Below the pieces are notes generated by a model. The model was given only the letters and a program-made list of their open reading frames with translations. It made no database searches and had not been told where the DNA came from. From Squalus acanthias (Eukaryota), in the NCBI GenBank assembly GCA_030390025.1, contig CM059435.1, positions 78,492,001 through 78,556,000 on the forward strand: a DNA stretch of 64,000 bases, read 5' to 3'. The translations under genes were made by a program, and so were the position numbers. Position 1 is the stretch's first letter. Each line of letters opens with the position of its first letter. Shown here piece by piece: positions 1 through 63,600 of this stretch.

Positions 1-779
1 CCGGTCTCTCACTGAAATTATAGTGGGAGACCAGTGGAACCCCCAGGGAATTTCAGGGCCTGTAGCTTCATTTACACCATAATAAATAATATCTATCAAA
101 CCATAGATACTTAAACATATAAGCTGCTTTTCTGTGAAATTTTTAGGTAGATCTAAATTAAGGGATGGAAATTTGTTGAGGCCCATTTCTGGGGAGAGGG
201 AGGGGAACAAGAGTGGGGTGATCTTGGGCCAGCAGCAGCCTTCAGGAGTGCTGTGGAGCCAGGAAGAGCACTCCTGCTTCTCTCGGCTCCACAGAAAGGT
301 AAGTGTGTAAAATTTTACTGACCTTGAGATCATATTCGGAAGCAAAAAACTGAGCAACCAACCATTACTAACCATATTATTTGGCATGATCAGGTATTAT
401 TCTGGATTCAAATGCTGATGCAGCATTTTATTCATTTTTTTCATTTGAAAAGAACTATAGAAGTGTTGACAATCATGGGATAAACATACCGTGCTCCAGA
501 GTGATCAAATCCAGGAAATAGTCACCTCTGTGGTGTTTTTGTCACACATAGATTACGTAGCTACATTATTAACTGAACATCTTCCACATCCATTATCAAA
601 CTAGTGCTTTACAACCTAAAAAAGAATCATTGACTAAAATCATACAAATCATTCTTGGTCTAAGATCTTCATTTGACAGGATCATTTAAATCATTCCTTG
701 AATCCAAAATATATCCAGATAACTAAAATAATGTGTATGGTTTTCAACTGATCCATCGCAGTTTTGACAGCCACCTCAG

Positions 780-800
780 GAAAGACAGTAGATTGTATAG
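780..800 (-). ncRNA. let-7a: let-7a-3p star strand (CUAUACAAUCUACUGUCUUUC)
   Basis: Plus strand gaaagacagtagattgtatag at 780-800 is the exact reverse complement of let-7a-3p. Confidence 0.93.
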
Positions 801-828
801 TTATCTGACCGGAAGGGTGTAACCCTAA

Positions 829-850
829 AACTATACAACCTACTACCTCA
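829..850 (-). ncRNA. let-7a: mature let-7a-5p (UGAGGUAGUAGGUUGUAUAGUU)
   Basis: Plus strand aactatacaacctactacctca at 829-850 is the exact reverse complement of let-7a-5p. Confidence 0.98.
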
Positions 851-1473
851 CCCCAAAGGACAGTAATATTCTGCAGCAACAACCAAGCAGGAAAATGGTG
901 TTCCTTCTGTTTATGTACCTGCATAGAAGGGAACAAGAAAGGAAACCGAGAACTGAAAGTGCAATCACATGAAAAGACTTTTCTCTATTTAGTTAAGCAA
1001 ACAGCTGAGAAAAATCTCAGTTGCCATATTGATAAGGGCAGTTATGTGTTAGTACCGTAAGCACCACAATAAAGAGGAAACTGCAACCATATTTATACCA
1101 ATATGTGTTATCACAATTAGATTGCCGACACTAGCACTTTATCAGAATACAGCATTTGATGTTTGCAAGAGCTTAACCGAAAGCAAATCATAGTAATGTG
1201 TACAAGCAATTTTTTCTATAACATATACAGTAATATATAATCAATAATATATAATAATCTGGGTGGGGAATGTGTCATATCAGCATTAACATAATCAAGG
1301 ATATTCTGTTAAGATCATGAACCGTGACAGTGAGCCTTTAACACATTACCTTTTGCATTATTGAAAATTTTCACCGTTACTGCCACTACTATGGCAACAG
1401 AGAATTGTAGTGCAGCTTTACAGCACATAATAATAACAAGAGGGTTTTTAAAACTGATGAAGTAAAACATATT

Positions 1474-1969
1474 GGCCTGGAATTTGCTCTCAGCGGCGCA
1501 GGAACGGCTTCATCTCGCGTACAGTTGCCCAGAGACTTTTCGCAGGCTTGTCACCGGAGAGTTATACTAATGGGGCATCTGACTCAGTGTGGCGCCCTCT
1601 ACAGGAGATTTGTGGCGTCTGTGAGCAGGCTAACAAGCAGGGAGGCTTTTCAACCAATCAGATTGAAGAATCCTCACTGAGAAAAACACTGCAAACCAGG
1701 AAGTAAAAATCAGGAAATATAAATTACATTTAAATCATTGTACAGGAAGCAAAATAAAGATTGGGACATACAGATGGGATTAAGGGAGAAAGATAAGAGA
1801 GCAAAACAGAAGAACTTTAAAAAAAGTTACATAATTTTAATTTTTTTTTAAATCTGCAACTTCTGATTTCCATGTTTAACTGCGCATGCCAGAAGTTGCT
1901 GTCAGATTTACCCTGTAATAAGGGCGAGCGCTGTTAGCCACGCCGTTATTATTACAGCAAAATCTGAGC
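1474..1969. mobile_element. non-autonomous DNA transposon (Harbinger-type MITE)
   Basis: Ends ggcctggaatttgct...agcaaaatctgagc are imperfect TIRs; CpG-rich termini; right end resembles the 12253-13021 element. Confidence 0.6.
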
Positions 1970-2570
1970 TGTTGTCTCTCAGATAACAAAAATGGACAGC
2001 TTTACCAAATTAAAGTACTTTACAGAAATATTTATCATCCTGCACTTCTATACAATAATGCTGTAAATATTTAAACCTGTTAAGACTCACTTTGGTTTAT
2101 AAAAGTGATCTATTTTGATGTTTCTCACTCCTAAAATTAAACACAGCTCCATATGTTTAACTGAATTTGTTTTCTGTCGCACTCATTTTAATCATAAATG
2201 TCAATCAAGGGGGTACTAAATATCTCTTTGGAAGGTTAAGCAGGCACTCCTCCTTAGTGAACAGACAAGCAGATGCAAACATGAACATTTCTGATTTCAA
2301 TTCAATCAACATTACTTAAATTGATCACGTCACCCATCTTTAAATATACTACCACGCTATCGCACAGCATAGCTTGATGTGGGTTCACTCCTTGATTCAC
2401 TATGTGATATATTCCCCATCTCAACAGATAGAGGATGTGTACTAGTACACAGGAATGCAGAGAAACGGGTGAAAGGAGGCCACATCATGCTGGATAACCT
2501 AGTTGCTAGTGCCAATATAAGAGTAGCACTGGAAGAATCTTGGGACTGGGTCACCTGCCACACAGCTAGT

Positions 2571-2666
2571 AAAGGACTGGGGCACATGGTAAAGGACTGG
2601 GGCACATGGTAAAGGACTGGGGCACATGGTAAAGGACTGGGGCACATGGTAAAGGACTGGGGCACA
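2571..2666. repeat. 20-bp tandem repeat, about 4.8 perfect copies (aaaggactggggcacatggt)
   Basis: Directly visible identical units. Confidence 0.95.
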
Positions 2667-2704
2667 CAGTCCATGAAGGCCAAAAGGAAAAGGGTAAAAC
2701 ATAC

Positions 2705-3039
2705 CAACAAAGGATGGAAAGAAATGGAGGTGGAGACTTTTTGGGTGGGTGGTTGTGAGGGTAATACAGATACCATCCAACTGCCTCCATTTAAATTTAT
2801 CCTCTGGCAATCACAAATCATCACTGGTGGTGGTCTTAGAGAAGTAATTAGCCTAGTTATTCGTGTACTTCCAAATGCAGGTTAATGCAGACTATGGGTG
2901 GCTTGCACGAGAAAAAGAAGAGAAATGGAACGATATCTTGCTGGTTTTCGAAAAGGCCAACCTGTGATGCCAACTGCTGCTCCTTTGCAGCTGGAACTTT
3001 TGCTTGTCTTCTTGCTGGCAGAGTGCAGCATCTTTTTTC
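2705..3039 (-). other. candidate non-coding exon of host transcript
   Basis: Acceptor tttttttcttgtgcttgtag|G at 3039; donors CAG|GTTGGC (2962) or TTG|GTATGT (2705); no recognisable protein in any frame. Confidence 0.3.
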
Positions 3040-3892
3040 CTACAAGCACAAGAAAAAAATTGCTTTTCAAAAAATGTAAATTTATACACTTAATGCCATA
3101 GATTATAATTTCATAATTAATGTTGGAAAATAATGCACATAAAAATTGTATGTACTATAAAATACAATGATAATTCTGCACCACAGCGCTGAAATATCTG
3201 CCACACCACCACTGACTCTTAATTCAGCAATGTCCATGTACTGTTCCACCTGCTGAGTTAGTTCATAATGGATTCGGTAGGGTTGAAAAGCATTATCTTT
3301 GCTGGAAACAGTATTGAAACTACTTCATACCTCTTGATCTGAAAGGATTCAACACTATCTTAACTAAAAGGTAATGGTAAACAATGAGGTCGCTTTATGG
3401 GGGGGGGGGGGGAGGGAGACAGAGTGAGGACTTGATGTTTTCCCTCCTGTGCCTGTTCTTGATCTCCAACCCAGATTGCAACACGGTGATCTGATTCCTC
3501 ACGGCAGACAAGGCATTTTCTGATTTGATAACTAGCAGGTGAGTGAGACTCGCGCAGAGCAACTCTCTCTTCAATATGTCTCCATCATTACAGACATCAT
3601 TACTCCCTATTCATCTTATCCCTCATGAACTACCGGAGATTGGGAACTCGCCAGGTGGAAACATGGTGGGAACCTGTGTCTAACAGCTACATGCCATAGT
3701 GTACTGAGTTCTATGATGCTTCACAAAATATTAATTTTATGGTCAGAAATCCATATGCCCTCTTGTCACTAAAAGAAGTCCCTTCTCTCTCACAGACAAA
3801 TAAGAGCTGGAGGTCAATAGACAGCTGAACAGATAGCTGAAAAAGTATCCTCTGTATCACAAACAACTGGACAACCAGCAAAGTACAGTAAT

Positions 3893-4633
3893 GGGCCGAA
3901 AATTGATCCCGGGACGCGAGAGTACGCACTGCATACTCTCGCGTATTCCCACTCCAATTGCCGGTTTTCTGCATGCCCTGCGCATGCGCTGAAAACCGGC
4001 AATTGCTCTTCTGAAAAGGGGGCGGGGCCTGATTGCATCGCGTGCGCGCTACAGGCTGCGCGCACGCTGTGCACTTCATGCTTTGGACGCGCAGGTAAGT
4101 AGGGAAGATTTTGGAAATGTAAAAAGGAGGAGTAAGACCCGCTTTTAAGAAGGTAAGTAGTGAATTAAGTATTTTTTTGAATTTTTTTTTACAGGTATAT
4201 CTTTTTTATAGACTTTAAAGACAGGTAAGTTTATTTTTATAACTTTTTAAAAGATTTTAAATTTTTTCAAAAATTTAATTTTTTATTTAAAATGGTTAAT
4301 TTAATTAACTATACTTATTTTATTAATGTGATGGTTTTTTTTAATTTAATTGAGGTTTAGCTGTTATTTTGGGGGGGTGTAAGATTCATAAGTCTCACAG
4401 CCATGCTGTGAGACTTATGAATGGAAGATGGTGTGCTGCCATTGGCTCTAACTGAGTCACGTGATCCCACAGCTCGCACGAATTAACTGCGCCGCTGGGA
4501 TACGCAAGCCCAGCACAGCTGATGTCTGGAACATCAAGTTCGTGCGAGCTGGATCAGAAAAAGCATAAGCGAGGTGAGACATCGCGGGGAAGGCTTACCC
4601 CCGCGGGAACAGAGCGAGATCAATTTCTGGGCC
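3893..4633. mobile_element. Harbinger-type MITE with internal hairpins
   Basis: TIRs gggccgaaaattgatcccg / cgagatcaatttctgggcc; CpG-rich ends, AT-rich core; internal inverted repeats including perfect 18-bp arms at 4384-4422. Confidence 0.75.
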
Positions 4634-4760
4634 AATATGTTCAAATCTCTGTGCAAATGTGCCTGATAAGGTTTTTCTGTTTGAAACGGGAAAAAGAGCC
4701 AGAGGACCCATACTGTTGTGATATCACTTGCAAGTAACACAATGATGCATTTCAACACAA

Positions 4761-5628
4761 GAACCAAGAGTTTCCACTTTGGCCGCTATCGACAATCCGA
4801 CACAAATTGCGCTAGTTTTAAGAAGTGTTTTATCTGAGGAAGGATGTTCTTGCCATGGAGGGAGTGCAGCGAAGATTTACCAGACTGATACCTGGGATGG
4901 CAGGAATGACGTATGAAGAGAGATTGGGTCGATTAGGCTTATATTCGCTAGAGTTTCGAAGAATGAGGGGATCTCATTGAAACTTATAAAATTCTAACGG
5001 GACTAGACAGACTAGATGCAGGAAGGATGTTCCCGATGGCGGGGGAGTCCAGAACCAGAGGTCACAGTCTAAGGATAAGGGGTAAGCCATTTAGGACTGA
5101 GATGAGGAATTTCTTCACCCAGAGAGTGGTGAACCTGTGGAATTCTCTACCACAGAAGGCAATTGAGGCCAATTCATTAAATATATTCAAGAAGGAGTTA
5201 GATATATTTCTTAAGGCTAAAGGGATATGGGGAGAAAGCAGGGACAGGGTACTGAATTTGGATGATCAGCCATGATCTCATTAAATGGTGGAGCAGGCTT
5301 GAGGGGCCGAATGGCCTACTCCTGCTCCTATCTTCTATGCTTCTATGTTTTTTTCCCTCAAGTTTCCGCTCAAACTCATTTGCATATCACTGGGCGCAAT
5401 TAGCAGAAACTCTCAAAGGTGATTAATTCGATTGGGGGCGTGGTCAGATTTGTGGGTAGGGCCGGATTCTAGTGCGATGTTTTTTAAACCAATGCAGAAG
5501 ATCGCGGCAACTCAATCTGTGCTGGATGTAATTTGCGTTTAAGGTTCCTCGATCTTTTGCACTGGTTTGGCCGATTTTGGGCTAATTGCACTGAAAAAAA
5601 CAGTGCAACCTAGCGAAAACTCCAGGCC
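4761..5628. mobile_element. MITE interrupted by a CR1 LINE insertion
   Basis: CpG-rich segments 4761-4829 and 5348-5628 flank the LINE; the right end gcgaaaactccaggcc has a degenerate counterpart at the left end. Confidence 0.45.
4830..5347 (+). mobile_element. CR1-clade LINE, 5'-truncated 3' end
   Basis: RT C-terminal peptide (RTRGHSLRIRG...FFTQRVVNLWNSLP), CR1 3' UTR ggccgaatggcctactcctgctcc and (ttctatg) tail. Confidence 0.92.
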
Positions 5629-6079
5629 AATTGGTTATGAGGTTTGCCAAATATCCTTTCATGGAGGAAAAATATATTGCTGTTCCTTTAAAATTATTTT
5701 AAAAATTGAATTCTTTTTAATATGTCTTTGTGCAGTATCAAAAATCTGCATCACCTTATTAAAGTAGCAACTCATTCACATAATTCAATAACATTTCTGC
5801 TTGTCTCTAGGGAAAGTGACTCAGTCTATGAATGGAGAATGCAGTCTTTTTAACTATCATTTTGAAAATGTCAAAAGTTTTTCATTTAAATAAAATATCT
5901 GTTAACTAATAATTGTCTCTTTTGTGTAAACTCTCCTCACAACAGAAATAGAATTTCTCCTGAAGCAAGAATCAGACACCTCTCAAATATTCATGCCACT
6001 GGCTTCCCACTGTGGCCTTCTCCAATCTGACTAAATTATTTCCTGGTTTAACCCCTCTTTCTAATCCCACACCAAAATT

Positions 6080-13974: not shown

Positions 13975-14064
13975 GTGGATACTCCAGCCATGTCTCTGCT
14001 GCAGTGGATACTCCAGCCATGTCTCTGCTGCAGTGGATACTCCAGCCATGTCTCTGCTGCAGTG
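13975..14064. repeat. 29-bp tandem repeat, about 3 copies (gtggatactccagccatgtctctgctgca)
   Basis: Directly visible identical units. Confidence 0.92.
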
Positions 14065-16068: not shown

Positions 16069-17391
16069 TTACAGCTTCTTTTGTCACAGTCTTTTAATTA
16101 TTTCAGAAACTCATAATGACAGATTGCTGTGAAGAACCAGCTGGACACAGGCACAGTCACACAACCAATTTCAGGTTTTCCTACAACTTAAAGTGCAATG
16201 GCCAATCTGTCGAAAAAGGCAGCAATCCATGTGTGTTACTTGCAGCAGTTTTACGACACTACAGTAAAACTAGCTGAGTTTTCCAGAACTGGTCTATACA
16301 GTAATCACCCACCAGATGGCGAATGTTCACCACATTTAAGCGCACACATTAAAATATTCATGAGGTTTGTAGATGAAGAAATCATAAAAATGATCTGATA
16401 AGTTTCAGCAAGTTTCAGCTGTTAAGGCTCTATCCATTTTATCTCAGTTTAAGGTTTCTGTCCATAAATTGTCAAGGATTTTAGTTGGTCATTTGTACTT
16501 TTCTACGTAGTATTGAAATATCTGCATACTTCTTAACTCTTTCAGAACCAAATGTTTAACATCTGCAACTCTGATACTATAAGTCAAGAGCCACAACACA
16601 TGTTGATGGGTGGAGCACAGTTACATTAGCAACTATATCACACAGCACCAGTAATTACAGTGCAAATTGATATCAATGATTACAATGCAGCGTGCAACTG
16701 CAACATACTAGCTTCTGCTGTAATAAAACCAACATCACCAAAACTGATGCAGTGAACCTTTTTAACTTGGCAAAGTGAACATTTTACCTCAGCAATGCAG
16801 AAAATTAAAACAAATGGAATTCCAGTAATTATTCTAACGCTAACAGTTTTTACAATAACTGAAGGGAATAAACAAAACTTTCTATTTCTAGCCTATTGGA
16901 CATGTCCCTGATGAAGCTCTTGTTAGACAAATACTAGAACTACTTTAACCCTTCACTGTGATTCGTGCTTCTATACCAAAACACTTCATATCCAGAGACT
17001 TCAATAAAACACAAGAACACTTCAAGATGCTGCACTTAGTACAAAGAGTTAGTTCACTGAGCTGCAGACCAGATGAGTCAGATGGGAAAGAGTCACAAAT
17101 TCATCAGTTTAAAGTTTCATTTTCACACATATAACATGCTATAAACAACCCTTGAAGGAAACTACAGTGACCGAAGTTATTTTTCAGGAAAATTTATACT
17201 TTATCTTGTTTTGGGGGATTTTATACATAACAAAACAAATTACAATTACTTTCACTATCCTAAAAGTAGTTTTCATTGATTTTCAATCGGACGGGATAGG
17301 GCTTACAACAAGCACTGGCATATTCTTTGAATGGTCAGTCTCACTGTCAATCATAAGAATTTCTGAAAGTTGTATGCTCAGATACACGCTA

Positions 17392-17887
17392 GGAGCTGTT
17401 GTCTCCCAGATTGAGTCTGCTGGGAGCTGTAGTCTCCTAGATTCAGTCTGCTGGGATCTGTAGTCTCCTAGATTCAGTCTGCTGGGATCTGTAGTCTCCT
17501 AGATTCAGTCTGCTGGGAGCTGTAGTCTCCTAGATTCAGTCTGCTGGGTGCTGTAGTCTCCTAGATTCAGTCTGCTGGGTGATGTAGTCTCCTAGATTCA
17601 GTCTGCTGGGAGATGTAGTTTTCTAGATTCAGTCTGCTGGGAGCTGTAGTTTTCTAGATTCAGTCTGCTGGGAGCTGTAGTCTCCTAGATTCAGTCTGCT
17701 GGGAGATGTAGTTTTCTAGATTCAGTCTGCTGGGAGCTGTAGTCTCCTAGATTCAGTCTGCTGGGAGATGTACTGTCCTAGATTCAGTCTGCTGGGAGCT
17801 GTAGTCTCCTAGATTCAGTCTGCTAGGAGCTGTACTCTCCTAGATTCAGTCTGCTGGGAGCTGTAGTCTCCTAGATTCAGTCTGCTG
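17392..17887. repeat. 31-bp minisatellite, about 16 copies (ctagattcagtctgctgggagctgtagtctc)
   Basis: Directly visible units with few substitutions and no spacers. Confidence 0.97.
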
Positions 17888-18919: not shown

Positions 18920-19745
18920 CACAGATAACAAGTTTAGTAAACAGGGAGAACTGTAAAAGACTTCAAAAAAATATAGACAACTTTGTGGAATGAGCAGACA
19001 GGTGGCAAATACTATTTAATGTAGGTAAGTGTGTAGGAATAAATTATGGGAGAAAAAAATAAGAAATACAGTTAATGAAAAGGTACTGATGGGTGTGAAT
19101 AAAGAAAGAAAACTAAGAGCTTAAATACATAATTCCCCAAAAGTGTGATTGCAGGTAGATAAAGCCATAAAAGGTCAACAGAATTTGGGGTATTATAAAT
19201 AGGGGTATAGAGTACAAACCTAAAGAAATAATGATGAATTTATACAAATGTTGGTTAGACCACAGTTAGATTACTGTGGGTGCCCACAGAGAGAGCATAC
19301 AACCTGGATTAATTAGGATGGTGCCAGGGATGGGAATGCTAGTAGTGAGGAGATACTAGGACTATTTCCACTGGAGTAAAGACAGCTGAGGGAATTTAAT
19401 AGAGTTTTTTACAATTGTGAAGATCTTGATAGAGTGAATAGGGAAAGACTATTCTGTTTGAAGAATCAGTATCGAGAGGTCATCAATTTAAAATTGCCAC
19501 CGAGAGAGTGAGGAGAGAAGTTAGGAGAAATTTCTTTAAACAGATGGTTGTTGCAGCATGCAGTGGTTTGCCACAGGGAATGATTAAGACCATTGCATCT
19601 TTTAAAGGAAAACTGGATAAATATTTGAAGCAGAGGAAGATAATGGGACAGTGGGATTAGTTTTGGATTGCTCTGGTCTGGAGTCAGCATAGACACAATG
19701 CACCAAATGGTCTCCTTCTGTGCTATAAACTTCTGTGGTGCTATG
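18920..19745 (+). mobile_element. degraded CR1 LINE (RT 3' half)
   Basis: Degenerate CR1 RT motifs (W..RWQI.FN..KC; GIEYK; FFKQ.VV..) and a CR1-type 3' end. Confidence 0.8.
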
Positions 19746-27500: not shown

Positions 27501-28029
27501 TATTAAGAATAAACTGTGCCACATCCATACATAGCAACTATTACATTTTTTATATAGAGAAAAAGTGACAAATTCAGCACCAATTGCATTTTTGCTTGCC
27601 TCTTCAGTTCTGTCATGTTTTCACAAATGAATTCCACTGCAGTCAAGTCACTACTTTCACAAAAGAGTTAAAATAATTCCTGAACTATCACTCATTGAAA
27701 TATCTGCCCTGATAAAACTAAAAATTGCTTCTCTTCATTCTAATACAGCGTAGGGAGCCAAAGGCAAGTGGTAGAAGCTGTAGTGCTGACAATGTTTTAA
27801 CACTAAATGTGGTGATTCAATATAGGATGTCAATTACAGGTGATCATTTCATATCACAATTTAAAGAAAAGAAATCAGTAGTATTTGTGAAGTGAGATTT
27901 CATTCTTCTACATTTCTACTGTCTGTGAGTTGTACCTGACTTTCAAAAAATACATTGCCATTGCATAGAATAATATATAACCAAAGACTGATCACAATGA
28001 GGGGGCACCATTCCAGGATATTCAGCAAG

Positions 28030-29270
28030 TAAAAATAGTCAACACAGATTTCAAAATGGAAAGTCATGCTTGACCAACCTTATTGAATTCTTTGAAGAAG
28101 TAACAGAAAGAGTAGACAAAGGTAATGTATTAGATGTAATATACTTGGATTTTCAAAAGGCCTTCGAGAAGGTACCACATAGTAGACTCATGACTAAGGT
28201 CAAGACAAGCAGCAGAATAGATAGCTAGCTGGCTGCAAAACAGAAAATAGAGAGTAGGGGTTAAAGGTAGTTACTAAGTCTGGCAGAAGGTGGGAAGTGG
28301 TGTTCCACAAGGATCGGTGCTGGGACCACTTATGTTCACCATTTACATAAATGATTTGGACTCAGGAATCGGAAGTACAATTTCAAAATTTGCGGATAAC
28401 ACCAAATTAGGGGGTATAGTTAATACTCAGGAAAACTGCGACAGAATACAAGACAACGTTAAGAAACTTGGAGAATGGGCATATAAGTTGCAAATTAATT
28501 TTAATGTAGATAAGTGCAAGGAGGTGCATTTTGGTAGGGGGAATAAGGAGGCCACATACTCCTTGGAAAATAAGAGTCTAAATGGAGTAGAGATGCAAAG
28601 GGATCGAGGAGTACACATTCACAAATCATTAAAACTAGCAACTCAAGTTAACAAGACCATAAAAAATGCAAACAAACTGGGGCTCATTTCTAGAGGAATA
28701 GAATTTCAAAGTGGGGAAGTTATGTTAAACTTGTATAGACCTTGATTAGACCACACTTAGAGTACTGTGTACAGTTCTGGTCATCATATTACAGAAAGGA
28801 TATAAAGGCACTGGAGAAAGTGCAAAAAAGATTTACATGGATGATACCGGAACTGAGAGGTTATAACTATCAGGAAAGATTGAATAGGTTGGGACTCTTT
28901 TCTCTAGAAAAGAGAAGGCTGAGGGATGACTTTATAGAGGTCTTTAAAATTATGAAGGAGTTTGATAGGGTAGACGTAGAGAAGATGTTTCCACTTGTGC
29001 GGGAGTCCAAAACTAGAGGCCATAAATATAAGATAGTCACTAATAAATTCAATAAAGAATTCAGGAGAAAATTCTTTATCCAGAGAGTAGTTAGAATGTC
29101 GAACTTGCTACCACAAGGAGTAGTTGAGGCAAATAGCATAGATGCCTTTAAAGGGAAGCTAGATAAGTACGTGAGGGTAAAAGGAATAGAAGGATCTGCA
29201 GATAGGGTTAAATGACGTAGGGTGGGAGGAGGGGCCGAATGGCCTGTTTCTGTGCTGTAAGTTCTATGTA
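28030..29270 (+). mobile_element. CR1 LINE reverse-transcriptase region (frameshifted)
   Basis: ORFs 28290-28745 (SGVPQGSVLGP, KFADNTKL) and 28742-29215 (RPHLEYCVQFWS, TRGH); upstream YLDFQKAF motif; CR1 3' end. Confidence 0.95.
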
Positions 29271-35236: not shown

Positions 35237-37008
35237 GGCCGGAATTTTGCCGGCGCTCAGAGGCAGGTCCGCTGTGAAAATCTAAAAGATTCGCAGCGGG
35301 TTGGGATCCCGCTCTGAACCCGCCTCCGTGTAAGTTTCCCAAGTGCCAGGCCTGCCTGCGCTTTGCCAGCGGCGGGTAAACCAATTGAGATAGTTAAGAG
35401 GGTCTTTAAAGGTAGTTGAACAGCATTTTACCACCTACTAGCCATTTTTCCAGCTTTTTCATGAGGTTCTCGTTGCTCAGGGATCACGTCAGGTAAGTGT
35501 GTTGGGTTCTCTATGACTCTCCATTGCTGTGAATAGGTGACAGCTGCAAAAGTGGTATAAAAGCTACCATTTCACAGCTGTTCACTTTCCAATGTTAGAA
35601 GCTTGAGCCTTCAGGACTTGGAAGACACTTTTGAGCTGTATTCAGTTTGGAAGTGTTTGGAGTAAACTCTCTATCCACTGTCACCTCCTTGGAGCAAGCT
35701 CTCTCACCATTGACAGATCACTTCTGTCATCTCAACTTCAGCTGATATCTATTCCAGCAGCATCGGTGCCCTTGAAAAAATCTCACCTTGGTCCTCAGAA
35801 TCCCACCACGATCAGCCCCAACACCATCATCACCAGGCACACCAGCAGCACCAACAACAACACCAACCTTCTCTGCAATCACTTAATGCTGCACAGGACA
35901 CAGGGCATCAGCACCCGAGCACATTGCTGCCTGGGAGGCCAGGGATTGCCTCACCATGGCCAGATTTACTTCACTTGACACTGTACACCCTGGCTGCCAC
36001 ATGATGCACCAGTTTGGCACCACCCCACACCAGCACCATAAAGCATCCCTACAATGTCCAAGCCATTCCTTTTACACTCATCACCTTTGGAGGGGGGGGG
36101 GGGGAGATGTTATGTCTCACCACTCACTGGAACTCACTAAGACACTTCCAAAGGTGCACACAAATCTGTCCAAGAAGGCAAAGTGATGAAAATAAAGATT
36201 TCAATGTTTGATAACACATTAACAGAGACTTTACAGGAACATTGCATAAAACACCCAAGTGGCTACCCTTGTGTGTTGTTAGTTGGTATGATTGGAAAAG
36301 GATGAGTGTTAGTGTGAGGGGTGGCTAGTGAGATGGGGAAGTGATAATGTAGATAGAGAGAGATGGGTGGAGATGAAAGGTAAGTTGGTGTGAGTAAGGA
36401 TGTGCTGGAGTAGAGTAGGGAAGGCAGAGTGATGGGGATGTGATGAGTGGCACAGCAGGATGAGGTTGAGTGTGGCTTGGCAGTAACGTTTCGTGATCTA
36501 CTGAGATCATTGAAAGGTTTGCGCCACTGCAGCCTGGTCCTCCTGATGACATCCCTGCTTGTGCCCTCCTGTACAATGTGCAACCAGGCTGCGTTGGTCT
36601 CCTGGGTAGGTCTCTTCCGCCCATTGGAAGGGAAGAGAACCTCCCTGTGTGCTGTGACTCCCTCCATAAGCATATGGAGGGAGTCATGGGAGAGCCTGGG
36701 TGCAGCCGTGCACTTTTGTGCAGTGCTTGTCAGTGTTTGCAGCACCTCAATGCTGTAGAACACTGACAGCACAACTGTCAAAATAAATTTGGACATGGTC
36801 CCTTTAAGGAAACCAGCTGGTGACGCATCATCAAATTACGTCATCAGACCCGCTTCCTTTTAATTGGCCGGAAACCTCACAGGATGGGCTTAACAAGCCC
36901 TATTAACGTAAAATCATGTCGGAGCCCGGGATCTAGACAGCTGCGGGGTCGGCACCCGCGACGGACGTCGCCCGCCACGGACCCGCCAAGGTTGGTAAAA
37001 TCCAGCCC
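35237..37008. mobile_element. internally deleted PIF/Harbinger transposon
   Basis: Imperfect TIRs ggccggaattttgcc / ggtaaaatccagccc with a 3-bp TSD (tga) on both sides. Minus-strand Myb/SANT-like ORF; plus-strand transposase-like C-terminal remnant (AAWEARDCLTMARF). Confidence 0.85.
36490..36730 (-). pseudogene. Harbinger Myb/SANT-like (trihelix, NAIF1-like) DNA-binding protein exon remnant
   Basis: APRLSHDSLHMLMEGVTAHREVLFPSNGRKRP...AAWLHIVQE..SRDVIRRTRLQWRKPFNDL matches the Myb/SANT-like pattern of Harbinger ORF2. Confidence 0.8.
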
Positions 37009-57472: not shown

Positions 57473-60400
57473 TCTATATATATCCATGCACACACACGAC
57501 TTGTCTCTTTTACGTCCACTGCTCTAAATAGGCAAATCCAGAAAATTATAATTAGTTGTAAATTTCAGCCTCTACGTCAATGACTGACTTTCTTTATTTG
57601 AAAGAGCACATTTGTAAAGTTTTTTGAAAAAATAAGTTATAATAATCGGTGTATCGAGGAACTATATACATATATACACAAAAAATGTATCCATATAAAA
57701 AATTCTGTTTCCCGCTCACTTTAACAAAGGTTTCCAAGTATCCCAGAAACAAAATCTACTTTTTCCCTCACATTCTTACCCTGTATCCTGATTCTAGATT
57801 CAAATGTTGGCTCACAACTCAACTTAAGACATTCTGGCTATTTCTGGATGAATAAAACTGAGAAAAATAGACTTTCAGAATGTCTGATTTAATTTCCTTC
57901 ATATAGATTTACAAATGAACATACTAAAATTAGTTACTGTTGCACAAGTACAGCAGAATTATACAGCAGGCACTGGCAAGGAAAATGCAAGCATTTGTCC
58001 GTTACATTTCAGCCCCTGTTTGAGAGTTTGGGCATCTAACTAACTATGAATTGCATCTTTTACAAAAACAAATTAGCTACTCACCCCCGCCCCCTCACAA
58101 AAACAAATGACATCTTTGTAGCGCATTCAATCCCAAATTTCAGTAATAATGCGGCTCTTTGACTAGCTTGTATATCACGTGTTTGTCTGACAGATTGCAC
58201 AGTTTGTGTCCTCTTTCCCTATCCTGTCTCTGACCGTGTGCATTACACAATTCTTCTTGGTCAGTACGACGGGATGGTCCAGCCTGTTCATATCACTACA
58301 GGCTGTCAAATTGTCAATCGTTGATCCTTGGCCAAGGAGCAGAATCATGACTGATATTAAATATTTTAATTGAAAAAAATGCGAAAAAATATTTAGATAA
58401 TTGTTTTTACTTTAAGTTCCGTTTGATATCAACCTTTAAAGGGTTATTGAATTAGTTATAATCATCTAATTTCCATTTTGTTTCATTTGTTGAATGCAAC
58501 ATCAATCTGGCAATGGCTGGTTTATCTCCTGCACTTCACTGAAATGTTGCATTTCTTAATTTTACAAAATGAATGCTGGCATCAATTGAAAATTATTCAA
58601 CCCTCCCCCTCACCATCACTGTCGTAATTAAAATTAAAGTCTTAAAACCAAACTTCCCAACTGCAACCTCTCCGCCAAACAGATTCTCCTGCTGATAGTC
58701 TGCTTCTTTCTTTGAATATTAATCCATAACACATAGCGCACCATCACTATTGATCTCCACCAGTTGAACAAGGTGAGGTCTGCATTGCAACACAACAGTT
58801 ATTAACACGCTATAAAATGGGAAATTGAAGTGTTTTAGTTACATTTATTTAAATGGAAACTGATATTTCTACTCAAATCTTCTCAGCTCCGACTTTCAAT
58901 ACGTCATTCTCTTCTTTTAGAATTTTACATTTCTCTTACATTAATAGGGTGGTGCTATCCCGTTATGGGATGAGGAAAAAATCTCTTAAGTTATGTTGCC
59001 ACGGCAAGACACCTTGCGTGCTACTGCGACATATTTTCTCTGCCTCCTATTCCAATTTAAGACAATGGACCAAAATGGGAGATCTGACTGTACTGGAATA
59101 GCTTAGCAACAAGAACCATGGCATTTTTATTCCTCCTGTTAAGAATGAAGTGTCTTAACTACCCGCACTAAGCTCGAACAACATGTTTTGTGAAAAAAAG
59201 AAATCACCTCATGTTAATCCTGCAACAATTGTTCCTAGAAATACAAATAATTTTGTTGTTTCTTTTCTTTTTCGAATCAATGGTTTGGTTGGGTACGATC
59301 ACTGACGCCCTGTGACAGCAGACCATTGCTGTTTGAAACGAATTATCTGAAACGTGCGGCATAGGTTTCACTGTGAGACTTCTCCACATTCTGGATTGTC
59401 GGATCAGTCTCTTCATTTCTAAAATATAGTGTAAACAGCTCGTGCCCTGTGTGCAGTTTTAATACCAACTTGCATTTTGAATGAGTACATAGCCACAGAA
59501 AATAAGTGGCAGAAAAAGATAATTAAAAAATAGTAAATTGGATCAGGCGAAATTGGAAACTTGAGTTTTGAGAACAAGCAGAATACGGTGAGATAAATGC
59601 AGCATTTAAACGGATAGGGAAGTAGGCTGCTAAAGAAATCTACATTTTATATTCAAATGAGATAATGTCCATGACTATTTACTTAACTAAATAATTATTG
59701 CTAAAAATGATAAAATAGGACAAAATTTGGGAAACAAAATACTTTAACATCAGAGTATTTGAGTTTCCTGAACCAGCATAACATGGCTTTCTGTCACATA
59801 TTTGAGTCTATTTTGAGTGGATTAGTTTAATTTGCTGACCATCAGGAGTTTTCTATTAGCAGTAATGAATATGTGCTCTTAGTAAACCTGACATCAGCAT
59901 GCAAAGTAATTTTTTAATGAAAATATACAATGGTTTAATGTAGTGTAATTAAATAAATGAATGTAAAACAAAACAAGTACGATAGACACAGAGAGACAGA
60001 CGGGTAGACACATGCACACGTAGAAAGAACGTTCTTTGAACCTAGCTGACATAGATGCAATTACATTCAACTTTAAAAGAAACACACAAACACTAATCTT
60101 TTGTACAGACACTTTAAATATCAACAGCAATTTTTTTTAATTGATTTTACTCGTCTTGTGCTATCTTTCATTCAGCAGGAGAGATCTTGGTGTAAAAGGT
60201 ACATTTATAATGTGGGAGCTGCCATGTTTACTGCTGCACTCTACAGAATACTGACATCTGAGAAAGACAACATCTGTTTAGAGAATAGACCATGGCAATG
60301 GTTAAATAAGCACCAACACCTAAATTTTGTTCTCTCTTTCTTAAATGCTGAATATTAAGGATCAAACCCCATGCGGGAATAATCACTTAACTGAGAATAG

Positions 60401-62110
60401 TTTTTATTCTGACTGGAAGCATTCAGATCTTCAATTGGAATAAAGCACAGAAACAATCCTTGAGTCATATAAAGTTGATTGGAAATAACCATAAACAGGG
60501 CCATGCACCATTATAAGAAATGCCCCGACGCATGGAAACAATGGATGACTGCGGGGAAGTCAATACGAGGGAGCGAAACCAACCGCAAGGCACGGCTGAT
60601 CTGACCAACTCAATGCAGCTCCAACTCGGAAGGTTTAGATCGTTATTTTTGCTTTATAAGAAAGAATCACCACCAACAGATTTTAAGACATTAAAGATTT
60701 AAATTAAATATTATGTAATCAGCTAACTGGCACACACTATGGGATGGGTTAGACTGACAACGTGTCTCAGATGATCTCAATCATCCTTTTGTGTATCGAG
60801 ATCATTTAAAAAAAATTCAGTATGACGTGTTCTGAAACCAACATATGTAACTGAGGAAATTTTTACAGTATTTAAATATATTTTTCAATTTTTTTTCAAA
60901 AAAACATTATCCAATAGCTACAGGAAAAAAAGTTAAATGTAAACAGCACCTTGGAACAACAGATCCAGGAGCCGTACCGCAAGCTTTACCATCAGGAGAT
61001 TCGACTAGTACAGGGTTAATAAAAAGAGGAGGAAAAAACCCAAACGATTCAAACAAACACAAGGTTGTTTTACTACTCCGTCATATTCCAGTAATTTTAT
61101 GCTTTTCTCCAAGATAACTATTTCTAAAAGTTGGTGTTTTCCAAATACGTTCAACAGCAGAAAAGCAGAAAGAAAATGACGAAATAAAAAAGTTAATAAG
61201 TTGCTTGCAGATTTCCCCAATTCCCTAAAAAAAATGCAAACGGCAGAATTCCTTTATACAGTGTACGCGCCAAAACCGGACGACACAACACCAGGCATTC
61301 TCTAAAAGCTCATTCAATACAATCCATTCAAACAAAGCACAGAAATAGACCAACTTTACCACCTAAACAAAACCAAAAAATAACTGCAAGAAAAGGTCAA
61401 ATAGAGAGTGATAGGCAGCGATCTAATACGGGTTACTGGCATATGGCGATGATAAATTTGTGGAAACATCACAGCACACGAGGGGACTTACTGAAAAATA
61501 CTTTTAGGGAAATAAAGAAAGAACCCTGATTCCCCCTCCCTCTTTTAACCCCTGATATTTAAAACTCACTCAGTACCAAAGGAAAACATTTTAGTCCATA
61601 TTATTTATCGGAAGTTGAAAACAATCTCCAAAGCAAACGCAAAAAACAAACTGAATCTCTTATTTTCTCAGCTCTTTTAAGCTGCCCCATATCCCTGCGC
61701 CAGTAAAGGGTGGTAACCAACAGAGACACTGCATTATAACCCAGGAAGGAGGACTGGCACCAGTCCTAGAACATGTGCACTCTGAAATAAAAGAGTCAGG
61801 AAGTAAACCCTCGCTCATCAACTGAAACTTCACAGCAATAAACAATATTTTTTAAAAAGCAAAAAGAGGAAAAAAAATAGAAAGTCAACTGTGCTTGGAA
61901 AATGTTGGTAATAAGCAGGAAACCAAACACAGAGAAAGATGGAAATTACGGCAGTCACTGCCATCTTCAGAAAGTGAGACAGCAGCGATTTTCATAGACA
62001 CGGTTTGCAAATTAAAACTTCGTTGGCTATAAGCATATTAGTCCGAGAAGCTGAAAATACAGTCCATCATTACAGTACGTCATTCAAAGAGCAATGGACG
62101 AGAGACGCAG

Positions 62111-62114
<4 letters not shown>

Positions 62115-62147
<33 letters not shown>
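62115..62147. repeat. (AG)16 microsatellite
   Basis: Directly visible. Confidence 0.97.
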
Positions 62148-62150
<3 letters not shown>

Positions 62151-63239
62151 TTACCCCCAAAAAAGTGTGAGAAGTCGGCGGGGGTAGACACGGGAAAGCA
62201 TTCACCTTGTATCTTGTCGTCCTGTAAAGCAGACAAGAAAACAGTCAGCTCCATTTTTACAAGTACTCACAGGCCTGAGTAATGGAAGGCGGTCCCTACC
62301 TAGCAACCACTTCCAGTTTTCATCTGCAGGCTTTCCCTGCCATCCGTGCCCCCCCCTTCAGTTGCCAACGCTGGTGACAATGGGAGGCCGAAGGGTAGCT
62401 GAAAATCAGTGTGTTAAACTCGTCTGGTAGTTAACAAGTCTTTGAATGAAGAATGTTAGCAAACAGACAAACAGCATGTCTGATGCATGCTAATAACATT
62501 GCTGGTCCAGCCTCACAACCAAGCCTATGAATTATTCAACGGGAAGAAACGACCCCCCTTCGCAGCCCAAATGCCTGCAGTGAGGAGAAAGTATTTTTTT
62601 AAATCAGCTCTCCCTTGTTTTTTTCTTCTTAGTTCTAAATTGAAAGTGAAACTAACGTGGCTTAACTCAAATTATTTATTACTTTCATTCCACAATATCA
62701 TCAATAATCCTTTTCGTACTGATCTGAACATTTTCTTTCACAGCCTATTTTATGTCTTTTGTCTGGAGTTGGCACCTGTCCCAGACAGCGCTCCGCTGCA
62801 CACCCTGTTCCCTCCCAATCAGTATATGAAAGAAATGAGGACCCAGAAGTGCAGCTACTTCCACACAGCCCTCGGCACATCCACATCTAACGCCGTCCTT
62901 TCACACGCAGATGCGCAGTACAATCACAAGACCGAGCTGTTTTTTTTGAGTGGCAGAGTACATTCATATTTTGAAGCAAGCACCACCCTAACCCGTGCAG
63001 GATTAGGTAGGCACACCGAGAAAAATTCAGTACTCAAATCAGGAAAAATTTATTCATTTAAAAAAAACACCACAGCTGCACTAACCATCACATTACTTCA
63101 TAGAAAGCCAAAAAGAAAAAAAAATCATTCAAACAAAAAATGTGAGCCTCATCTTCTGCCAACCAGTCACAATAGAGAAACAAAAAACAAAAATCCAGTT
63201 TGTCGTGTGGAGAAATCTTCTGGTCTGGCAAAGGCTGTC

Positions 63240-63600
63240 TGAGGGGGAGGCCCTTGCAACAGGAACAGAAGCAGCATAAGCATAGCTCAGTCGCCCTCTC
63301 ACGAGTGACTGCAACTGTCTATCAAGGAGGACAGAGCAGTACCGAGAGGCCTGAGCTGATGATGAAATAGAGGCATGCTCTTCCACACCGCCCCCCCCCT
63401 CGCCTCCCCCCCCCACCCGCCCCGTGTGTGAGAGCTAGCTACTTTCATCACACGGCCATGAATTGTGCAGCGACTGACACCACCGATCCTCTGGCTGAGC
63501 TGGACCGCACTGCGCCAGCGCACTCTCTGCTTCCTTGCAGCCCCCCTCCCCCAAACACATATACTCTTTTGAGCCAGGTAATGAATTAAGACATGCAGCA
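63240..63600. promoter_or_regulatory. candidate TATA-less promoter with GC boxes (possibly bidirectional)
   Basis: Non-repetitive, GC/CpG-richer segment with ccgccc/cacccgcccc Sp/KLF boxes at 63388-63423, at the end of about 6 kb with no recognisable TEs. Confidence 0.45.

Follow-up and report, generated by a model that had tools for sequence, protein, structure and literature searches.

The let-7 genes of vertebrates are arranged in clusters, among them cluster E (let-7a-1, let-7f-1 and let-7d), cluster F (let-7f-2 and miR-98), cluster G (let-7a-3 and let-7b) and cluster H (Hertel et al. 2012, PMC3384580). In human, cluster G is exonic, lying in the 3' exon of MIRLET7BHG (PMC3384580), and the order of the genes is WNT7B, non-coding genes, MIRLET7BHG, MIRLET7A3, MIRLET7B and PPARA (PMC10048319). 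Human let-7a-3 ends at chr22:46,112,822 and let-7b starts at 46,113,686, which leaves a gap of 863 nt (PMC11617737); in lumpfish, the gap between let-7a-3 and let-7b measures 585 nt (PMC8773022). The orthologue of hsa-let-7a-3 in mouse is mmu-let-7c-2 (PMC10296230), and for both ola-let-7a-1 and dre-let-7a-3 the cluster partner is let-7b. Clusters D, E, G, H and J have been reported from the elephant shark, and, according to the same authors, sequence by itself is not enough to match the clusters of tetrapods with those of teleosts (PMC3384580). Two cartilaginous fishes are included in MirGeneDB 2.1 (PMC8728216). A let-7a-3-type gene has already been described across the jawed vertebrates, cartilaginous fish included.

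The window, i.e., the whole 64,000-base stretch of Squalus acanthias DNA that was analyzed, carries a let-7 hairpin close to its left edge. The features at and around this hairpin are the following:

776..856, minus strand: let-7 precursor hairpin (Rfam RF00027)
829..850, minus strand: let-7a-5p, the guide strand (identity with human by eye; first base, 850, bulged)
801..828, minus strand: terminal loop (preE), 28 nt (fold and motif scan)
780..800, minus strand: let-7a-3p, the passenger strand (identity with human by eye)
851..864, minus strand: 5' strand of the basal stem, a cluster-G-type flank (predicted pairing; 14 nt equal to the ola-let-7a-1 flank by eye)
767..779, minus strand: 3' strand of the basal stem (predicted pairing partners)
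758..761, minus strand: CNNC motif, possible SRSF3 site (motif position; putative function)
919..945, minus strand: 3' splice-site-like stretch, pyrimidine tract plus AG (21 of 24 pyrimidines)
691..936, minus strand: chance open frame of 81 codons, not a gene (Pfam and frame counts)

The hairpin matches the let-7 family over the whole RF00027 model (positions 1-84 of 84) with 75.5 bits and an E-value of 4.1e-14, above the gathering cut-off of 53.5 bits. It is the sole match at gathering level when 4227 Rfam families are scanned against all 64,000 bases. At E-values up to 10, positions 1-6000 gave 15 matches, of which let-7 alone exceeded its own cut-off. A match to mir-3596 in the same region (41.9 bits, cut-off 96) is the let-7 hairpin itself, read on the opposite strand. 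The segment 765-865 of the minus strand folds with -40.9 kcal/mol (z-score of -4.92), and none of 200 shuffled sequences was equally stable. The precursor is 71-nt-long, composed of a 22-nt 5p arm, a 28-nt loop and a 21-nt 3p arm. Compared by eye with the human sequences (PMC12651170, Table 1), both arms are identical: 22/22 positions for hsa-let-7a-5p and 21/21 for hsa-let-7a-3p. The basal stem is predicted to be paired down to about 864/767, and in the same predicted fold, the loop forms a mini-stem of 5 bp (826-822 with 818-814, pair probabilities 0.80-0.99) closed by a 3-nt mini-loop. All this agrees with the sequence-only reading of this DNA, which had placed a let-7a hairpin with exact arms and a pairing basal stem at 777..854 of the minus strand and had proposed a BLAST or Infernal search against MirGeneDB/miRBase as a check. 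The locus is an intact, ordinary let-7a microRNA gene, and the hairpin almost certainly functions as one.

No second let-7 was found by Rfam or sequence scans, neither in positions 1-776 nor in the rest of the window, and the window holds no further copy of the hairpin stretch. Two further let-7 seed 8-mers are located on the plus strand, at 19744 and 56209. As let-7 candidates, these were rejected: they have no Rfam match, around two such 8-mers are expected by chance (an estimate), and no let-7 arm was present at the one plus-strand seed 8-mer site inspected.

RF00027 is matched as a whole, but the model is blind to the differences between paralogues. To tell them apart, the window was compared by eye with the miRBase precursor sequences that PMC5372658 gives in its Table S1. 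The precursor tni-let-7a-2 is identical to the window at 80 of 84 nt. Within the 28-nt loop, 26 positions are shared with tni-let-7a-2, 25 with each of ssa-let-7a-3 and ipu-let-7a-7 and 19 with hsa-let-7f-2. The 5' flank agrees with that of members on the cluster G side at 14/14 (ola-let-7a-1), 13/14 (dre-let-7a-3) and 10/11 positions (mmu-let-7c-2), compared with 6/11 (mmu-let-7a-1) and 5/10 (dre-let-7a-1) for cluster E. The 3' flank is a weak guide to the paralogue (9/10 for mmu-let-7c-2 vs. 7/10 for mmu-let-7a-1).

The first hairpins of teleost cluster G (tni-let-7a-2, fru-let-7a-2, ssa-let-7a-3, ola-let-7a-1 and dre-let-7a-3; PMC5372658, Table S1) have their 5p arm and 5' flank in common with the window. 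Their loop is equally long or nearly so and, as in the window, contains no GGAG. Their 3p arm differs at two positions, where the window carries the human version, and at least two of their loop positions are unlike those of the window. The window also has the arms of human let-7a-3, flanks close to those of its mouse counterpart let-7c-2 and, like this MIRLET7BHG-borne pair, a group II bulge and no GGAG-like motif, although their loop measures 26 nt vs. 28 nt in the window. Judged by these likenesses, the hairpin very likely has a cluster G (let-7a-3) identity. The complete statement, that this is a working minus-strand let-7a gene and the cartilaginous-fish orthologue of human let-7a-3, i.e., the first hairpin of cluster G, is one in which we are fairly confident. 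The earlier reading had arrived at the same chondrichthyan let-7a-3 call, which now finds support in the likeness of flank and loop to teleost and mouse precursors and in the missing GGAG.

A working let-7a gene could instead be orthologous to let-7a-1, which belongs to cluster E together with let-7f-1 and let-7d, or to the hairpin that comes first in cluster F. By eye, human let-7a-1 has both arms and the group II bulge in common with the window and agrees with it at 13 of the 14 bases in the 5' half of the loop, whereas human let-7a-3 matched poorly over these 14 bases. Because of this similarity, the best match against human sequences alone would be let-7a-1, which is misleading: the let-7a-1-like start of the loop is found in teleost members of cluster G and in lamprey hairpins too and, therefore, looks ancestral. 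Human let-7a-1 has another 5' flank and another 3' half of the loop, and GGAG is present. In all four printed E-type hairpins (hsa-, mmu-, dre- and ipu-let-7a-1), the 5p arm is preceded by an A and the loop contains GGAG, while the window carries a G and lacks GGAG. With a 5' flank that agrees at only about half of the positions, against all 14 for a member of cluster G, an origin from cluster E or F is very unlikely.

Another candidate is cluster H, which is sister to cluster G: the hairpin would be its first member and would have retained the let-7a mature sequence in sharks, a reading of very low probability. Teleost let-7e, which we take from its clustering to be the first hairpin of cluster H, resembles the window, by eye, in its 5' flank, shares its 3p arm and likewise lacks GGAG where this motif usually stands. 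Cluster H is, moreover, present in the elephant shark (PMC3384580). However, let-7e has two differences in the 5p arm, an extra base before this arm, another start of the loop and another 3' flank, and in each of these features the window agrees with the members of cluster G.

The genes around the human locus had been given correctly in the sequence-only reading, with let-7a-3 and let-7b between WNT7B and PPARA (PMC10048319), and its statement that positions 1-776 hold no let-7b is confirmed by the Rfam and sequence scans. Counted from the equivalent end of the hairpin (778), 777 nt are left up to the edge of the window, and let-7b is absent from the 779 nt downstream of the 3p arm on the minus strand. 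Since the human gap of 863 nt is larger than the 777 nt available, human spacing puts let-7b ~90 nt past the edge; given this spacing, its absence from the window is compatible with cluster G. The gap of lumpfish, on the contrary, would place let-7b inside the window, where none was found. That the hairpin anchors the locus, as proposed in the sequence-only reading, is thus a prediction. A G-type hairpin that was severed from its cluster, with let-7b lost or moved, or that represents a silent duplicate, would also fit a downstream stretch longer than the lumpfish gap and free of let-7b, and a partial loss of cluster G has been reported in dolphin. Nevertheless, this is very improbable: the arms, the stem and the flanks are intact, as selection predicts, the human gap exceeds the room left, and the hairpin stretch has no other copy within the window.

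The preferred reading remains that of an intact let-7a-3 gene of cluster G. Concerning its neighbors, no Wnt or nuclear-receptor (PPAR) domain was found by Pfam in any of the 195 stop-to-stop frames of at least 65 codons, a length below which exons would escape. Eight of these frames have any match at an E-value of 0.01, and two are above the cut-off (RVT_1 and Myb_DNA-bind_5). Nothing was recognized by eye in the 53 ATG frames of at least 24 codons at 57-64 kb. In the literature search, no paper combining let-7a-3, let-7b, WNT7B and PPARA was encountered, and the motif search yielded one unrelated primer only.

The frame at 691-936, which overlaps the hairpin and had earlier been called spurious, is a chance frame. 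It is open on the minus strand only, with 81 codons counted from TTG. That it encodes a real small protein sharing its DNA with the microRNA is extremely unlikely: it does have an in-frame ATG, the first one at 924 (77 codons), and a host transcript of the same strand could carry it, but it has no Pfam match, it is one of 57 frames of at least 81 codons in the window (mean of 30.6 in 20 simulated sequences), 40 ATG frames reach at least 77 codons, the loop lengths of 26, 28 and 29 nt seen by eye among the members of cluster G would shift the reading frame, and the ATG is located within the acceptor-like stretch, where use of this site would remove it by splicing.

This acceptor-like site (919-945) would place the start of an exon at 918, at a distance of 68 nt upstream of the 5p arm. 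It was found post hoc. Twenty-one pyrimidines out of 24 are reached by eight of the 783 YAG sites on the minus strand, and among these eight, only the one at 919-945 is followed by a G. One of eight sites would fall within 100 nt by chance in ~1 of 80 cases, a value to be read in the light of the post hoc choice of the site. A donor-like 6-mer is located in the 5' basal stem of the hairpin, at about 851; if used together with the acceptor, it would delimit an exon of 67 nt whose end falls within the hairpin.

At the other end of the window, which has a G+C content of ~40%, positions 58001-63000 have a CpG ratio of 0.53-0.58, compared with a median of 0.29 for the window. From 58 kb to the end, no within-window repeats are present. 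The region of 58-63 kb, ~60 kb upstream of the hairpin, may contain the host gene promoter. In human, one annotation places the start of MIRLET7BHG ~59 kb upstream of let-7a-3 (PMC11617737); another places it 27 kb upstream and has additional starts beyond that point (PMC4561498). The composition of the strands was considered as well. The AT skew of the plus strand is 0.037 (22 of 32 blocks) and the GC skew 0.005; GGTAAG is commoner on the plus strand (19 vs. 8), and the 77 vs. 53 occurrences of AATAAA on the two strands differ about as much as the skew predicts. As a sign of minus-strand transcription, this bias is weak and mixed. The same end of the window contains an (AG)16 run (62115-62147) and, on the plus strand, the longest ATG frame of 57-64 kb (62487-63242, 251 codons). 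This frame has no Pfam match and a non-protein-like ESM Atlas score and is probably non-coding.

In the predicted fold, the 5p arm starts with an unpaired base (850), with a probability of 1.00, and its second base is paired to the antepenultimate base of the 3p arm. In class II pri-let-7, such a geometry leads to a 1-nt overhang (preprint 10.1101/2024.05.09.593372). Group II comprises let-7a-3 and let-7a-1, and group I let-7a-2, let-7c and let-7e (PMC10806991, supplement Table S1). By its predicted bulge at the first 5p base, the window precursor would belong to group II (class II). The CNNC motif starts 19 nt past the end of the 21-nt 3p arm, compared with a canonical position of 17 (preprint 10.1101/2024.05.09.593372). 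A basal UG is found at -12 instead of -14, and an apical UGU is absent from the hairpin.

Following general let-7 biology, the hairpin would be transcribed by RNA polymerase II, from right to left, as part of a long non-coding host transcript, in which let-7b would probably follow ~0.9 kb or more downstream. Drosha-DGCR8 would then cleave the stem at 850 and near 780, with the bulge leaving a 1-nt 3' overhang as expected for group II, after which TUT4/7 may add one U to the precursor. Mono-uridylation barely alters Dicer cleavage in vitro (PMC10806991); hence, the uridylation step may not be rate-setting. Dicer would take off the loop, and the 5p arm would be loaded into Argonaute to repress mRNAs matching the let-7 seed.

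A broken LINE reverse transcriptase, spread over at least two frames, is located on the plus strand at 28001-28742 (reverse transcriptase frame at 28278-28742). Among its named full-length relatives, identity is highest (52-57%) in cartilaginous fishes: Callorhinchus milii (57 and 52%), Hemiscyllium ocellatum (56%), and Chiloscyllium punctatum, Leucoraja erinacea and Hypanus sabinus (52-54%). It drops to 46-48% in turtle and alligator and to 35-45% in birds, and one match of 55% is labelled as a bacterium. These relatives point, indirectly, to a cartilaginous fish as the likely host of the window DNA. On the minus strand, a frame at 36266-36835 contains a Myb/SANT-like domain (PF13873, 24.6 bits with a cut-off of 21.7) and adjoins stable GC-rich hairpins at about 36600-36730. 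No homologue of this frame was found in a homologue search, and it is likely a transposon remnant. The stretch 3890-4640 is CpG-rich, with a ratio of 0.9 in 4001-5000, and includes the most stable 90-nt fold of the window (about 3916-4005, -49.5 kcal/mol). Only weak, sub-threshold Rfam matches were obtained here; it is probably a palindromic repeat element. Three young tandem arrays are present: 4.9 copies of a 20-mer at 2569-2666 (100%), 3.1 copies of a 29-mer at 13975-14064 (100%) and 16.1 copies of a 31-mer at 17388-17887 (93%).

With regard to LIN28, the motif scan detected no GGAG, GAAG, GGUG, GNGAY or CUCUG in the loop (801-828). Among the human let-7 precursors, let-7a-3 is described as the only one without a GGAG-like motif (preprint 10.1101/202036); like the window loop, it has neither a zinc-knuckle motif nor the GNGAY cold-shock consensus. 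By eye, none of the 11 hairpins grouped as first members of cluster G has GGAG at the usual 3' place. Ten of these are printed in PMC5372658 (Table S1) and one in PMC8773022; six are tied to cluster G by papers and five by likeness. One hairpin, ipu-let-7a-7, carries GGUG in the 5' side of its mini-stem. A review ascribes the escape of the mammalian precursors (hsa-let-7a-3 and mmu-let-7c-2) from LIN28 to CUCUG at a short apical stem-loop (PMC10296230), an element that is missing from the window loop. This loop is, thus, without LIN28 sites and without the mammalian escape element alike, and its mini-loop is of the let-7a-1 type. A limited literature search gave no report, by title, of LIN28 escape in fish.

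For routine annotation, the locus adds a cartilaginous-fish orthologue of let-7a-3, and let-7b is predicted to lie shortly beyond the left edge. A further reading, namely that the escape of let-7a-3 from LIN28, known in mouse and human, dates back to the origin of the jawed vertebrates, is tentative and, in our opinion, rather doubtful. The natural hybrid loop described here, which combines a let-7a-1-like mini-loop with the lack of GGAG, could serve to separate and date the two proposed causes of this escape. If the reading is true, the loss of GGAG would have come first, perhaps in an ancestor shared by clusters G and H, and the mammalian CUCUG later, and one LIN28-free source of let-7 would have been kept for ~450 million years.
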